From IMG/VR virus record IMGVR_UViG_3300031555_001696: a stretch of DNA of 64,000 bases; one strand, given 5' to 3'. The notes beneath the pieces are model-generated. The model was not told where the DNA came from, ran no database searches, and saw only the letters and a program-made list of their open reading frames with translations. A program made the translations under genes and the position numbers. Within the stretch, counting starts at the first letter, position 1, and every line of letters begins with the position of its first letter. The stretch is from a virus. Its lineage: Duplodnaviria > Caudoviricetes. Shown here piece by piece: positions 10,704-27,615 of the stretch.

Positions 10704-11231
10704 ATGAATTTAACGAAAGTAAGTAAATATCTGGCTTTAATTCTACGTCACAAGCCGGAAACTATTGGAATTACTCTAGATAAAAATGGTTGGGCCAATG
10801 TAAAGGATCTCATCAAAGGCGTAAATAAAACTTACAAGTTGGACATAGCTATGCTAGAGGAAATTGTTGCAACAGATGATAAGCAACGATATTCTTTCAA
10901 TGAAGACAAGACATTAATTCGTGCAAATCAGGGACATTCCGTGGACGTTGATGTTGAGCTAGAAGAGGCAGTACCTCCAGAATATCTGTGGCATGGTACA
11001 GGAACAAAGTACGTAGAGAGTATCAGAAAGACTGGTCTTATCCCTAATTCTAGGCTATACGTACATATGTCGGAGAGTTATATGACTGCAATGGATACTG
11101 GTGCCAGACATGGCAAACCTATGGTATTTTGCGTGAAAGCGGAAGATATGTATAACGATGGTTATAAGTTTTATAAGTCTAAGAATGATGTTTGGCTTAC
11201 AAAATTTGTACCAGTAGAGTATTTGGGTTGA
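10704..11231 (+). CDS. kptA: RNA 2'-phosphotransferase (Tpt1/KptA)
   Basis: SKYLALILRHKP, DDKQRY, IRANQGHS, HGT, RLYVHMS, VWLTKFVP motifs. Confidence 0.95.
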   Translation: MNLTKVSKYLALILRHKPETIGITLDKNGWANVKDLIKGVNKTYKLDIAMLEEIVATDDKQRYSFNEDKTLIRANQGHSVDVDVELEEAVPPEYLWHGTGTKYVESIRKTGLIPNSRLYVHMSESYMTAMDTGARHGKPMVFCVKAEDMYNDGYKFYKSKNDVWLTKFVPVEYLG

Positions 11232-11262
11232 TGAATAAAAGCTGAATTTAAGAGGTAAGGTT

Positions 11263-11514
11263 ATGTTTATTGGAGATATTGTAAAACATTTCAAGTGGGA
11301 AACAATTTCTGATGAAGAAAGAAAACAAAATAAATATTTATATTGTATTAAAAATATTGCAGAGCATACAGAAACAGGAGAAAAGCTGATAGTGTATCAG
11401 GCAATGTATTTTCCGTTTAAGACTTATGCGAGACCATTTGAAATGTTTTTTGAAGAGGTAGACCATAACAAGTATCCAGATATTAAACAGAAGTACAGAT
11501 TTGAAGCATTTTAA
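11263..11514 (+). CDS. DUF1653-family protein
   Basis: KHFK...[17 protein letters not shown]...YARPFEMF...QKYRFE. Confidence 0.85.
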
Positions 11515-11546
11515 TATATTAAAAGTTTAATTTTATGAGGTGACAT

Positions 11547-11729
11547 ATGCATTTAAGGTTTGTTGGAAAAGATAAATCAATGGGATTGTCTCGTGGTAGA
11601 GTGTATGATGTACGAATAAAAACAACAAATAACAATATTTGGGTTATAATTCCAAATATTCTTTTTGGTGCGTGGAAATGCCCGTATTCGTCTCCGCAAA
11701 GTTTTGCAGCAAATTGGGAGTCGGTATAA
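11547..11729 (+). CDS. Hypothetical protein
   Basis: GAGGT RBS; bounded by repeat sites. Confidence 0.65.
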   Translation: MHLRFVGKDKSMGLSRGRVYDVRIKTTNNNIWVIIPNILFGAWKCPYSSPQSFAANWESV

Positions 11730-11757
11730 AAGATTAATTTTTAAGTAGGTGAAAGTA

Positions 11758-12072
11758 ATGGAAAATACTTGTGTATGTTGTGGAGAAATCATTCCAGAGG
11801 GCATGCAGGTGTGCCATGCGTGTATGAGTGAAACTCCTATAGTTCCGCAGAGGCCGTATATGCAGTTTAATTGCCCGGAATGTGGAGCAAAACTGGAAGT
11901 ATGGTGCGATGCACTTGAGGATGAAACACCCGCAAAATTTGATAGTTTTTCATACGAGAAGCGGTATCTGATCAGACATTGTCGCAGTTGTGGATGTGAC
12001 TGGGAAAACGAGTGGTGGACTGAATGGGGCGATGTTGGCGAGTCGCAGTTGAGAAGAAAGTTTTGTGGATAA
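11758..12072 (+). CDS. Zinc-ribbon protein
   Basis: CVCCGEIIPEGMQVCHAC plus CPEC...CRSC. Confidence 0.7.
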   Translation: MENTCVCCGEIIPEGMQVCHACMSETPIVPQRPYMQFNCPECGAKLEVWCDALEDETPAKFDSFSYEKRYLIRHCRSCGCDWENEWWTEWGDVGESQLRRKFCG

Positions 12073-24739: not shown

Positions 24740-24834
24740 CTAAAATTCACAAATGGCCAGGAGAAATCTTGGATATTTTGCCAACTTGATTTTTGGAAAA
24801 TATGTGGTATTATAACAGTACAAAATGAATTGAG

Positions 24835-25308
24835 GTGATTGATGTGGGTACCAATTTCTATATGATTACTAAGAATAAAAAAATGGCAGAAAAATATGCA
24901 CCATATTCTTATGAGCTGACAGACAGACCATATTTTGGTTATGAAATTCACGTAGCTAAGACTTCATGTGGTTGGCTTCCTCTTTTTCAAGGGCACAGGG
25001 ATGGCATCAATTCTGTGCGTGAATATAAGACGGCGTACAAAACGGGCGAATTTGAAATCGTAGATGAATATGGCAACATTTATACATGGGAAGAATTTGA
25101 TAAACGGGTGTTGCAGTTTAACGGCGGTATTCGAGGAGTTGCACCTATAATTACAATAGAAGTAGATAAAAATTCTAGATGGTATGATCCAAGAATGCCA
25201 GATTGCACTCCAGTAAGTCATTTTGAATATAAATATGGTTATTATTCTGCAAACGATTACTTTACAGACGAAGATGGATATGAATTTGACAGAAGGGAAT
25301 TTTCATAA
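24835..25308 (+). CDS. Hypothetical phage protein
   Basis: GTNFY...IHVAKTSCGW...IVDEYG...EFS. Confidence 0.7.
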   Translation: MIDVGTNFYMITKNKKMAEKYAPYSYELTDRPYFGYEIHVAKTSCGWLPLFQGHRDGINSVREYKTAYKTGEFEIVDEYGNIYTWEEFDKRVLQFNGGIRGVAPIITIEVDKNSRWYDPRMPDCTPVSHFEYKYGYYSANDYFTDEDGYEFDRREFS

Positions 25309-26420
25309 TGTACAAGCTTGAATTAAGAGACTTTATTCTGTCTCACGATAATTGGGAAGAACTTTTAACTGCAGAACCATATTATCTTAAGATTTCTCGT
25401 GATGACGGGTATATCATGTTTAAATATAATCAGGTGTTTTCTGATTTTAATATTCCTCTAGTTCGTGAATCACGAGGAATTATTTTCAGAGAAAGCGATT
25501 GGAAGTGTGTGTCTTATCCGTTTCGAAAATTCGGAAATTATGGTGAGTCTTATTGCCCCGAAATCAACTGGGAAACTGCATCTGTTCAAGAAAAAGTCGA
25601 TGGGTCATTAATTAAATTTTGGTATGATAACGGATGGCATATTTCCACTAACGGCACAATTGATGCGTTTAAGGCTAATCTAAACGATGTTAAGTATGAA
25701 AACTTTGGACAACTTGTTGCTACTGCAATTCATAAAGTATTTGAAGATGAGCACGATTTTTTCAACATGCTTGACCCAAAATGTACATATATGTTTGAAC
25801 TAGTTTCTCCATACAACCGCATAGTTATCCCGTATGAGGAAGTTAAGCTATATTTCTTAGGAATTAGAGATATGAACGATGGAGAGGAATGGAATCCAGA
25901 AGAGTCTGACCTGTCTATGTTTTTCTCTATCCCTAAGCGTTATCCTCTACATTCTCTGGAAGGTGTACAAAAAGCAGCAAATGCGCTTTCTTGGGACGAG
26001 GAGGGTTATGTAGTTTGCGATGCAGATTTTAATAGAGTTAAAATTAAAAGCCCATCTTACGTAATGGCTCATTACGTGCGTAATAACAACACTATTAATA
26101 CTGAGCGGTTAGTACATATTGTTCTTGATGGAGAGCAAGAAGAATTTCTAATTTATGCTTCTGACTATGCTGATGAGCTTCGTAACGTCGAGGATATTAT
26201 GCATAATATTGCAAGCAAGTCAGTTGAAAGTATGAAGATAATATTCGGCGCATCTTATGAATTTGCTAATCGTGGAGAATATGCACGAGAGGTAATGAAA
26301 TATCCTGCATATATGAAAGACTTCCTATTCCGTTGTTTTGATGATAAGATTTTCTGGGATTATGCAAAGAGTTGGAGTATAGATAGATGGGTTAAAGCTA
26401 TTAATGAATTTAAGGGATAA
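25308..26420 (+). CDS. RNA ligase 1 (T4 Rnl1-like)
   Basis: RESRGIIF, PFRKFGN, motif I EKVDGS, TYMFELVSPYNRIV, EEGYVV, RVKIKS. Confidence 0.9.
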   Translation: MYKLELRDFILSHDNWEELLTAEPYYLKISRDDGYIMFKYNQVFSDFNIPLVRESRGIIFRESDWKCVSYPFRKFGNYGESYCPEINWETASVQEKVDGSLIKFWYDNGWHISTNGTIDAFKANLNDVKYENFGQLVATAIHKVFEDEHDFFNMLDPKCTYMFELVSPYNRIVIPYEEVKLYFLGIRDMNDGEEWNPEESDLSMFFSIPKRYPLHSLEGVQKAANALSWDEEGYVVCDADFNRVKIKSPSYVMAHYVRNNNTINTERLVHIVLDGEQEEFLIYASDYADELRNVEDIMHNIASKSVESMKIIFGASYEFANRGEYAREVMKYPAYMKDFLFRCFDDKIFWDYAKSWSIDRWVKAINEFKG

Positions 26421-26427
26421 AAAGAAA

Positions 26428-26703
26428 ATGAAACATAATGTTGTTAAATCTATGATTGGAGGAATTATTACTATGATTATAGCAATTTTGATAATTATTT
26501 GCGCACCCGCTTTTTATTATTTTGGCGGCTGGATTACAGGCCATCTGCTTAGCTGGTTTATCGGTGACATTGTTGTAGATGGTATGAACTATCTGTTTAA
26601 TACTACAAGATTTACAGTTGATATGTTGCCTACTATTTGTGGTACTCTTGGTGTAATTGGGTCTTTCTTTAAGAGTACAACTACGACAAGTTCTAAGAAG
26701 TAA
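26428..26703 (+). CDS. Small membrane protein
   Basis: Hydrophobic helices. Confidence 0.65.
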   Translation: MKHNVVKSMIGGIITMIIAILIIICAPAFYYFGGWITGHLLSWFIGDIVVDGMNYLFNTTRFTVDMLPTICGTLGVIGSFFKSTTTTSSKK

Positions 26704-26712
26704 GGTGATAAG

Positions 26713-27615
26713 ATGTATATCCCGAAGTTTATAATGATGGTAGGTTTGGTTGCGAGCGGCAAGTCTCATATGGCTCAAAAACTCGCTATCGAACACAATG
26801 CTACAATTTTTAGTTCGGATGAACTTCGAGAAGAAATGTTCAATAATGTCAACAACCAAGATCATAACCAAGAACTATTTGTAGAACTTCATAGGCGCAT
26901 CAAGGACTGTCTTCGTAGTGGTAAAAGTGCCATTATGGATTCTACAAACATTAACTACAAGCGTCGTATGGCATTCCTAGCTGAGCTTAAGAGCATTCCT
27001 TGTGAAAAGATTTGTGTGTTAATGGGAACTCCATATGAAGAATGTTTGAAGCGTAATGCTGAGCGTGAACGCAAAGTTCCAGAACATGTAATTTTAAGAA
27101 TGTATAGCAATTTTAACATTCCTTATTGGTATGAAGGTTGGGACGACATTAAAGTTGAATATGGTGTGTTTAAAGGTTATTATGGCAAACTAGCAAGTTG
27201 GTATAACAATTATAAAGATTATAATCAATACAATTCTCACCATACATTAACACTTGGAGAACATTGTTATAGGGCTGCATTAGAGTTAATTGGTAGCAAT
27301 TCTGTCACGTTAGTACGTGCAGCATGGATGCATGATAATGCGAAGCCAGAAACGGCAACATTTATCAACTCCAGGGGTGAGGTAACTACCGAATGTCATT
27401 ATTACAACCACCAATATGTTTCTGGATACAAGGCACTCCTATTTGATTATAGCAATCTATTGGATGTTGCGATTATTGTAATGTGGCATATGCAACCTTA
27501 TTTCTGGGAGAAAGATAATAATGAAAAGTTGCATAGTAAGTATCGTAAGTTATGGGGAGATAATTTGTATCAAGATATTATGCAACTCCATGCGGCGGAT
27601 AAATTGTGGCATTGA
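26713..27615 (+). CDS. Polynucleotide kinase (AAA_33) fused to HD phosphoesterase (Pnkp-like)
   Basis: GLVASGKS P-loop, SSDELR, DSTN; C-terminal HH...EH...MHDNAKP...H...HM...D HD domain. Confidence 0.85.
   Translation: MYIPKFIMMVGLVASGKSHMAQKLAIEHNATIFSSDELREEMFNNVNNQDHNQELFVELHRRIKDCLRSGKSAIMDSTNINYKRRMAFLAELKSIPCEKICVLMGTPYEECLKRNAERERKVPEHVILRMYSNFNIPYWYEGWDDIKVEYGVFKGYYGKLASWYNNYKDYNQYNSHHTLTLGEHCYRAALELIGSNSVTLVRAAWMHDNAKPETATFINSRGEVTTECHYYNHQYVSGYKALLFDYSNLLDVAIIVMWHMQPYFWEKDNNEKLHSKYRKLWGDNLYQDIMQLHAADKLWH

Follow-up and report, generated by a model that had tools for sequence, protein, structure and literature searches.

Distribution and possible role of a phage RNA ligase and Pnk-HD cassette found alongside nested tRNAs

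The 64-kb stretch of DNA analysed here (the window; IMG/VR record IMGVR_UViG_3300031555_001696, Caudoviricetes) belongs to a phage with a genome of about 170 kb and carries an RNA repair operon downstream of a tRNA array in which two tRNA genes are interrupted. The operon encodes an Rnl1-type ATP-dependent RNA ligase and a polynucleotide kinase (Pnk) fused to an HD phosphoesterase (Pnk-HD). Among the matches listed, a ligase and a kinase of this family were present in every near-complete phage genome with a nested tRNA, i.e. a tRNA gene that holds a tRNA-shaped insert, and in fewer than half of the control genomes. Judged from its genes, the operon on balance probably works like T4 Pnkp and Rnl1, repairing tRNAs cut by nucleases and rejoining the halves of the phage's own tRNA-Lys and tRNA-Arg, while the NAD+ (nicotinamide adenine dinucleotide)-dependent RNA 2'-phosphotransferase Tpt1 and the metallophosphoesterase MPE1 would form a separate module.

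The coordinates of the features are given in Table 1. The + strand carries the genes from position 1 to about 45 kb of the window. The region consists of two separate modules, the repair operon (22951-27615) and the Tpt1-MPE1 accessory module (10704-12895), with the array of 13 tRNA genes (14052-19214) between them. The gene for Tpt1 belongs to another array of small accessory genes, 14 kb upstream of that for the ligase, and an NAD+ salvage operon begins 99 nt after the repair operon. A megablast search of the region against cultured phages matched only a tRNA, so there is no close cultured phage at the DNA level. The identical Pnk-HD protein was found on 18 public contigs, the longest of 170 kb. 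The original prediction had described a complete heal-and-seal toolkit around the interrupted tRNAs, and the genes do form a working-looking set of the T4 Pnkp/Rnl1 type. Six of the seven genes that it named between 10.7 and 27.6 kb were confirmed where it had placed them; the 'HD-like' one (23377) was not.

Table 1. Features of the window discussed in the text
Feature	Position	Strand	Support or content
Tpt1/KptA, NAD+-dependent RNA 2'-phosphotransferase	10704..11231	+	PF01885 E=5.5e-47, 160 bits vs cut-off 26
MPE1, lambda-phosphatase/ApaH/PrpE-type binuclear metallophosphoesterase	12065..12895	+	Metallophos E=5e-15; 1g5b 1.3e-4
tRNA-Lys(UUU), 49-nt minihelix insert after position 36, insert ends CCA	14212..14338	+	Rfam 53.9 bits, 52-nt insertion; ARAGORN intron call
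tRNA-Arg(UCU), 77-nt tRNA-shaped cloverleaf insert between positions 35/36, ends CCA	15248..15401	+	Rfam 50.4 bits, 81-nt insertion
tRNA-Gln(UUG), among the few array tRNAs without encoded CCA, abuts ribozyme	16611..16683	+	Rfam 59.1 bits
Predicted minimal HDV-like (theta-type) ribozyme	16684..16740	+	RF02682 27.9 bits vs gathering score 44, local E=0.0019
Repair operon	22951-27615	+	orf136, DUF5662, MPE2, orf107, orf157, Rnl1-type ligase, TM99, Pnk-HD
orf136, first operon gene	22951..23361	+	phrog_4643 6.6e-17
DUF5662 protein	23377..23832	+	PF18907 2.4e-38
MPE2, small metallophosphoesterase	23847..24416	+	phrog_547 6.7e-44; PDB 1xm7 1e-10; Pfam match below cut-off
orf157, conserved protein	24835..25308	+	Stop codon overlaps ligase start
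Rnl1-type ATP-dependent RNA ligase	25308..26420	+	PDB T4 Rnl1 2c5u E=3.8e-18; phrog_562 E=2.7e-51
TM99, small hydrophobic protein between ligase and Pnk-HD	26404..26703	+	phrog_30257 1.4e-7
Pnk-HD, 300 aa, N-terminal 5'-OH polynucleotide kinase and C-terminal HD phosphoesterase	26713..27615	+	AAA_33 E=2e-23
DarG-like macro domain in NAD+ salvage operon	30481..30972	+	Macro 1.1e-5; NF048014 6.3e-18
TARG1/OARD1-type macro domain	33059..33484	+	PDB 4j5r 4.5e-26
PARP-like ADP-ribosyltransferase, directly after TARG1-like macro	33485-34717		PARP catalytic domain 6e-23

Interrupted tRNAs and the repair operon

The interrupted tRNAs proposed by the original prediction are real, with support from both Rfam and ARAGORN at 14212 and 15248. 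The Rfam tRNA matches at these positions span 124 and 151 nt, respectively. For tRNA-Arg, ARAGORN calls the inner tRNA (15284-15360) as well as the outer tRNA with an intron. Each insert starts at G1 of a 7-bp acceptor stem, contains a T-arm and finishes with an NCCA end, and removal of the insert restores a canonical 7-nt anticodon loop.

Within the operon, adjacent genes overlap or are separated by no more than 15 nt, except for a gap of 95 nt before orf157. The ligase has the nucleotidyl-transferase motifs I, III, IV and V intact (K96-VDG, FE164LV, E232-GYV and K245-I-K247), and in the alignment with 2c5u these residues pair with K99, E159, E227 and K240/K242 of T4 Rnl1, in agreement with the Rnl1 call made for 25308. 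T4 Rnl1 entries are its sole solved relatives by sequence in the PDB search, and no Pfam family matched even at E<=10. Against TIGR02308 the ligase scores 75.4 bits (E=4.6e-21), below the equivalog cut-off of 242.25. As regards the C-terminal tRNA-specificity domain, the PDB alignment ends at residue 287, though that with TIGR02308 covers profile positions 33-341 of 373. On its profile matches, the ligase is a distant member of the T4 Rnl1 superfamily and not an equivalog.

The AlphaFold2 model of Pnk-HD has a predicted local distance difference test score (pLDDT) of 94. Residues 1-155 match the kinase of Clostridium thermocellum Pnkp (CthPnkp; 4gp6) at Z 19.1 and T4 Pnk at Z 15.9, with 4gp6, 4jt2 and 4gp7 being the best Foldseek matches of the kinase. 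The Walker A motif (G11-LVASGKS) and S34-SD36-ELR, which holds the catalytic Asp, align with CthPnkp. Residues 152-300 match the HD-fold proteins PhnZ (Z 13.4), TmpB (Z 11.9) and 3wfo (Z 12-13), and the HD ligands H177, H184, H207-D208, H229, H233, H259 and D296 are invariant in 16 homologues. PF01966 (HD domain) gives 17.5 bits for the window protein, below the cut-off of 22, and is assigned on several close homologues. Both folds and the metal ligands expected of the kinase-HD protein at 26713 are thereby confirmed. According to the model, the order of the domains (kinase 1-150, HD 152-300) is the reverse of that in the Runella-type HD-Pnk, a distinct architecture that would be functionally alike. 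In public data 845 homologues were retrieved, and the protein is common in gut phages. Three phages with Tpt1 retain only the first 28 codons of Pnk-HD (G064 140346-140429, G068 45711-45794 and G077 47979-48062; L and G numbers are labels of related loci and records), in G064 directly beside an intact PF09414 ligase. These remnants suggest a recent loss of the healing enzyme.

The remaining operon genes are small. The protein at 23377, predicted to be HD-like, is a DUF5662 protein. It was rejected as an HD-like enzyme, having no PDB relative and an hhalign probability of 0.1% against the HD profile of Pnk-HD. MPE2 does match known metallophosphoesterases, as had been foreseen for 23847, and, like MPE1, retains its catalytic residues. 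MPE2-like genes recur beside Pnk-HD across several phage lineages, directly downstream in L030-L032 and within 1-4 kb in L003, L008, L015, L024 and L025. Homologues of orf136 lie upstream of the cassette in L015, L020, L026 and L029. The product of orf157 is 62-75% identical in 13 contigs, in each immediately upstream of the ligase. It has no match in Pfam, PHROG or NCBIfam, falls into Atlas clusters labelled 'hypothetical' only, and gives a poor AlphaFold2 model (pLDDT 57). TM99 homologues hold the same position in 12 contigs.

The cassette is conserved as a unit. Of 19 IMG/VR contigs that encode a close relative of the ligase, 18 have the Pnk-HD gene 1-4 kb away, and most of these contigs have orf157 immediately upstream and TM99 immediately downstream of the ligase. 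Relatives also carry an RlaP nucleotidyltransferase inserted between TM99 and Pnk-HD and a Thg1-like gene downstream, both recognised RNA-repair partners (PMC7824862). In L026 (7256-8734) and L029, a 492-aa Rnl5/DraRnl-like ligase with a PHA02142 OB domain and a KMHGT motif takes the place of the Rnl1-type one, while the flanking orf157, TM99 and Pnk-HD are kept. Thus, orf157 is retained upstream of the ligase regardless of the ligase family. This in-situ swap (non-orthologous displacement) indicates that what the slot provides is RNA ligation, whichever enzyme performs it. Orthologues of the Rnl5-like ligase are present in G015, G020, G021 and G028 (L304-L307). The Rnl5-like ligase is widespread in phages with nested tRNAs, yet scores below the Pfam cut-off.

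A NifS/IscS-like cysteine desulfurase gene and a cytidine/dCMP-deaminase-like gene (20335-22771) precede the operon, and most relatives show the same synteny ahead of the ligase cassette. tRNA-Lys(UUU), tRNA-Glu(UUC) and tRNA-Gln(UUG), all encoded by this phage, are tRNAs that normally bear 2-thiouridine.

Co-occurrence of nested tRNAs with ligase and kinase

Nested tRNAs were sampled with a pattern that is blind to protein content, namely a CCA-ended T-arm followed 14-19 nt on by a second T-loop, which gave at least 119 viral contigs. ARAGORN confirmed at least 35 interrupted tRNAs, and the inserts inspected were tRNA-shaped, NCCA-ended and located in anticodon loops. Whole-record Rfam scans miss some nested tRNAs (e.g. 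that of G006, which is seen by ARAGORN) and absence was therefore judged by ARAGORN on the DNA. A strict pattern for the inner tRNA family matched two contigs, both already known.

The test set consisted of the 12 records that are at least 90% complete, out of 28 records with nested tRNAs; these and all following counts for such records are among the matches listed. An ATP-dependent RNA ligase was found in 12 of 12, five being Rnl1-like and the rest PF09414, and a kinase of the Pnk-HD family likewise in all 12, seven of them with an HD domain. RtcB was found in none of the 12, nor in any of the 28. At a completeness of at least 79%, all 16 records have both ligase and Pnk. Three PF09414 matches below the cut-off are part of a family of full-length, 53-67% identical Rnl5-like orthologues; this was checked directly for G020 and G021, and G027 has the same 493-aa match as G021. 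Hence, the ligase family differs among phages with nested tRNAs (Rnl1-like or Rnl5-like) while the function is kept. Controls were 11 size-matched, tRNA-bearing contigs, drawn by a plain tRNA pattern, with a length of 100 kb or more and a completeness of at least 90%. Seven of these have a ligase and five have both ligase and Pnk. One-sided Fisher tests give p=0.037 for the ligase and p=0.0046 for ligase plus kinase, values that are optimistic because the 12 genomes represent about 9-10 lineages and no genome-wide screen for nested tRNAs was made of the controls. Nested tRNAs that commonly occur in phages lacking any RNA ligase had been named beforehand as the observation that would speak against a processing role; in this set both enzymes accompany the nested tRNAs throughout.

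The proposed series of events starts from the ancestral and general job of the kit, which would be the repair of tRNAs cut by host anticodon nucleases. The P-loop kinase would phosphorylate 5'-OH ends, and the HD domain, possibly aided by MPE2 or MPE1, would clear 2',3'-cyclic or 3'-phosphates to leave 2'-OH/3'-OH ends. The Rnl1-type ligase would then seal the break in the anticodon loop, giving a clean junction for which Tpt1 would not be needed. In this lineage, the same enzymes most likely also rejoin the halves of tRNA-Lys(UUU) and tRNA-Arg(UCU) once the inserts have been excised by tRNA-end-processing nucleases. Since the insert starts at G1 of a 7-bp acceptor stem and has a T-arm and an NCCA end, RNase P would be the obvious candidate for the 5' cut. 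The constant presence of the kinase would hint at a 5'-OH on at least one of the exon ends. In a stronger form of this proposal, whose chances appear somewhat less than even, the ligase and Pnk would be the obligatory sealing half of a third type of tRNA splicing. Here, RNase P would cut at the 5' end of the insert, another cut would follow after the CCA and the phage enzymes would heal and rejoin the exon halves, and tRNA-shaped introns would persist only in phages that bear the kit.

Several points weigh against a rejoining role. About 64% of large tRNA-bearing phages have a ligase to begin with, and the p-values carry the optimism noted above. The cassette is also found where all tRNAs are uninterrupted, as in the 95%-complete G002 (which is the same as L016) and in Bacillus phage Chewbecca, so nested tRNAs are not the kit's reason for being. 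No nuclease is assigned to the 3' cut, after the CCA of the insert. If cuts of the RNase P/Z type were made at both sides, they would give 3'-OH and 5'-P ends, and the kinase and HD domain would be superfluous. Finally, the window covers 64 kb of about 170 kb, and a 2H enzyme or a second ligase may lie elsewhere. The kit is older and broader than nested tRNAs, and nested tRNAs have, to date, not been seen without it. The original prediction is supported in part: the make-up of the enzyme set and its co-occurrence with nested tRNAs speak for it, whereas the kit is not special to nested tRNAs and the yeast-like cycle discussed below is not supported.

The same observations bear on a purely counter-defensive function, in which the kit would repair only cuts made by anticodon nucleases such as PrrC, RloC or PARIS-like systems, and the nested tRNAs would either stay unspliced, with the inner RNA as the product, or be spliced by the host. 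It follows the T4 paradigm, and tRNA-Lys(UUU) and tRNA-Arg are classical nuclease targets. The cassettes in phages without nested tRNAs, the high background frequency of ligases in large phages and the RlaP and Thg1-like genes of relatives, which are typical of damage repair, fit it as well. However, it does not account for the excess of ligase plus Pnk over the controls or for the lack of RtcB in the phages with nested tRNAs. The restoration of a 7-nt anticodon loop upon removal of the insert also suggests that rejoining of the outer tRNAs is intended. Overall, repair of nuclease cuts as the sole function is considered rather unlikely.

A further candidate substrate lies within the tRNA array. 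Directly after tRNA-Gln, a minimal theta-type ribozyme of the hepatitis delta virus (HDV) family is predicted, with a P1 stem (GUUCUAC/GUAGAAU) that has a G-U closing pair, a P2 of 9 bp and the P3/L3 core GCCUCCACGUGGC. A second HDV-family model matches the same place as RF02682, and this is the only site in the 64 kb that passes a strict P1/P3/L3 core pattern. The cleavage chemistry of HDV-type ribozymes is established. Cleavage would leave tRNA-Gln with a 2',3'-cyclic phosphate, giving the healing enzymes a putative second, built-in substrate from which the phosphoesterase could remove the cyclic phosphate. It was considered whether the healing enzymes chiefly serve such ribozyme-processed tRNAs, with the HD domain or the metallophosphoesterases removing the cyclic phosphate of tRNA-Gln before CCA addition. 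The core directly abuts a tRNA-Gln without CCA, and according to Kienbeck et al. (2024; PMC10879173), RNA ligase is enriched 140-fold in theta-ribozyme phages, with the CCA-adding enzyme also enriched. On the other hand, such a function requires neither kinase nor ligase, RF02682 does not reach its gathering score, and the strict pattern gave one match in 33 related loci, all of which have the cassette. It is thus very improbable as the chief function, and theta-type ribozymes were rejected as a general explanation of the cassette, being too rare in the related loci.

Other elements were observed in or near the tRNA genes. A second class of inserts, 37-102 nt long and not tRNA-shaped, shares the motif ACAGCAAGTTT or a close variant across unrelated phages (L065 10341-10592, in G005, as well as L008, L018, L080 and L103). 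One of these seemingly lies between the D arm and an intact anticodon arm. In L002 (1495-1803), a relative without a nested tRNA, a tRNA-Leu(UAA) has a 224-nt insert in its anticodon loop, whose position and size are classical for a group I intron. A GIY-YIG/HTH homing-endonuclease-like gene (14431-15192) is located between the two interrupted tRNA genes of the window. L005 and L008 have related copies within the ligase cassette, L034 and L036 close to tRNAs. Lastly, a sub-threshold match to the RAGATH-27 RNA motif (17945-18033; 47.9 bits vs 76.1, E=2e-4) lies inside the tRNA array, directly after a gene (17267-17935) labelled tail fiber protein by PHROGs.

Tpt1, MPE1 and the NAD+ genes

Tpt1 passes its Pfam cut-off and that of NCBIfam NF002014 (242.3 bits vs 239). 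The alignment with PDB 7kw8 (E=7e-48) spans the whole protein and pairs R15, H16, R62 and R117 with R16, H17, R64 and R119 of that structure. The identification of KptA/Tpt1 at 10704 therefore holds, with the catalytic tetrad intact; the corresponding tetrad is essential in Runella Tpt1 (PMC6097658). The metallophosphoesterase foreseen at 12065 was likewise recovered. This protein, MPE1, matches Metallophos and lambda phosphatase 1g5b, has weak matches to ApaH, PrpE and bacterial Pnkp profiles, and retains the D-x-H histidine, as does wild-type CthPnkp. It lies about 0.8 kb downstream of Tpt1 in the window and 1-2 kb downstream in L034, L035, L036 and L039, making it the sole conserved neighbour of Tpt1.

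The original prediction had joined these genes into a eukaryote-like splicing cycle of the fungal/plant type. In such a cycle, a cyclic phosphate is opened to a 2'-phosphate, the ligase forms a junction that bears this phosphate, Tpt1 removes it with NAD+, and macro enzymes recycle the ADP-ribose product. An intact Tpt1, NAD+ salvage genes and two macro domains within the same 25 kb would suit it, and similar proposals exist for Runella (PMC6097658) and for phages (PMC9503650). One mutation can turn a calcineurin-type phosphoesterase towards a 2'-phosphate product (Keppetipola et al. 2007; PMC1920235), and MPE1 is conserved beside Tpt1. MPE1 keeps the D-x-H histidine of the wild-type enzyme, however. 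The same paper describes tRNA ends healed to 2'-OH as readily sealed by T4 Rnl1 and ends with a 2'-phosphate as spliced by the yeast ligase; the only PDB relatives of the window ligase by sequence are T4 Rnl1, the sealer of 2'-OH ends.

The distribution of Tpt1 also speaks against such a cycle. Tpt1 is not only 14 kb away from the ligase but also missing from five of five ligase-bearing relatives (G001-G005), two of which are complete genomes with terminal repeats, and from all 28 records with nested tRNAs, including the 12 near-complete ones. No contig is common to the lists of ligase and Tpt1 homologues. Conversely, an Rnl1-type ligase is missing from all five of the Tpt1 contigs examined, including two with a completeness of at least 94%. 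Some ATP-dependent RNA ligase is present in seven of ten near-complete Tpt1 phages, while none was detected in the other three. This rate equals the background of 7/11, which indicates that Tpt1 is not coupled to the ligase. In addition, no 2H cyclic phosphodiesterase was found in the 64-kb window by family scans and a check of unannotated open reading frames for the paired H-x-T/S-x motif. No measurement favours a yeast-like cycle, which is regarded as improbable.

Around Tpt1, other phages have small genes and a MazF-like toxin and no repair genes. A MazF/PemK-like endoribonuclease is encoded 1.7-2.9 kb downstream of Tpt1 in 15 phage contigs (L040 12927-13283 and 14 others). In L048, L049 and L053, Tpt1 is near PncA/PRS/NAMPT-like genes, and overall it occurs in 98 phage records of varied kinds. 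Both macro domains of the original prediction are real and lie outside the region to which it had assigned them (30481-30972 and 33059-33484). Downstream of the NAD+ salvage operon, the TARG1-like macro domain, the PARP-like transferase and an NAD+-dependent DNA ligase (LigA) follow each other in a row (33059-36685), a dense set of NAD+-consuming genes. From its sequence context, the Tpt1-MPE1 pair is best grouped with the other NAD+/ADP-ribose genes of the phage and not regarded as an obligatory step of the ligase pathway.

A more specific proposal is that Tpt1 would be no splicing enzyme but a tool in NAD+/ADP-ribose conflicts, e.g. for ADP-ribose capping or uncapping of 5'-phosphate RNA or for removing 2'-phosphates made by a host weapon. 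Its place in an accessory-gene array away from the ligase, the PARP-like, TARG1-like, DarG-like and NAD+ salvage genes of the window, and the neighbours and wide occurrence described above are consistent with this. Since most near-complete Tpt1 phages do have an RNA ligase, Tpt1 may still have a repair role, and the conflict role is rated somewhat unlikely.

Relation to known systems

As a set of enzymes, the kit is ordinary for a large phage, and its value lies in the context. According to the comparative genomics of Iyer, Burroughs, Aravind et al. (2021, 2022), large phages combine Rnl1/Rnl2 ligases with Pnk and with HAD, calcineurin-like or HD phosphoesterases (PMC7824862, PMC9503650). Their catalogue also includes RlaP, Thg1, KptA and macro/2H enzymes, and KptA-based cleaning of ends is proposed there. 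Published phage toolkits thus have the same make-up, KptA and macro enzymes included, which makes the kit itself an already known type. Unlike the present case, those kits were not connected to interrupted or nested tRNAs, and the window is without the 2H enzyme that their KptA route assumes. What is new is the reversed domain order of Pnk-HD, along with the invariant partners orf157 and TM99, and the in-situ swap of the ligase, together with a ligase-blind, measured association of nested tRNAs with ligase plus kinase and the exclusion of Tpt1 and RtcB. The Pnk-HD fusion and orf157 are candidate enzymes that are common in gut phages.

The closest functional parallel is T4 Pnkp with Rnl1. In common are the 5' kinase, whose fold matches T4 Pnk, a 2',3'-phosphoesterase and an Rnl1-family ATP ligase with all nucleotidyl-transfer motifs. 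In T4, however, the 3' healing domain is a DxDxT (HAD) phosphatase, whereas that of the window phage has an HD fold. The window ligase is very divergent (75 bits vs the equivalog cut-off of 242) and is accompanied by the extra partners orf157, TM99 and MPE2. Interrupted tRNAs are present in the window phage and absent from T4.

The cluster of Runella slithyformis (LIG, HD-Pnk, Tpt1 and MTase-HIT; Munir & Shuman 2017, PMC6097658) likewise has a ligase adjacent to a bifunctional HD/Pnk protein, and Tpt1 is found in the same genome. The window Tpt1 is closest to PDB 7kw8, a structure with the catalytic numbering of RslTpt1. In contrast, the window has Pnk-HD instead of HD-Pnk, its Tpt1 is 14 kb away and not 152 nt, its ligase is of the Rnl1 type and it has no MTase-HIT gene.

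Cultured Bacillus Tsamsa-like phages offer a comparison within phages. In vB_BanS_Chewbecca (gp136/gp137), the genes for an Rnl1-like 'tRNA ligase' (25% identity) and a full-length homologue of Pnk-HD (~30%) overlap, and PRS- and NAPRT-like NAD+ genes lie 6 kb downstream of the pair. Unlike the window, Chewbecca has 20 uninterrupted tRNAs, and no Tpt1 is annotated in the stretch inspected.

Regarding the inserts themselves, Devoto et al. (2019) described 'enigmatic' short tRNA introns in Lak megaphages, one of which 'itself may encode a tRNA' (PMC6784885). Short tRNA-shaped inserts have been called enigmatic since then, with no enzyme tied to them, and a literature search found no paper linking phage tRNA introns to an RNA ligase. 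The co-occurrence makes the question experimentally approachable: together with the exclusion of Tpt1 and RtcB and a small, fully sequenced cassette, it turns an open question into a direct experiment. At present the finding is moderately interesting; were the testable splicing role true, phages would splice tRNAs with repair enzymes, and the interest would be high. In the Lak megaphages neither a mechanism nor a link to repair enzymes was proposed, whereas here the co-occurrence of such inserts with ligase and kinase has been measured.

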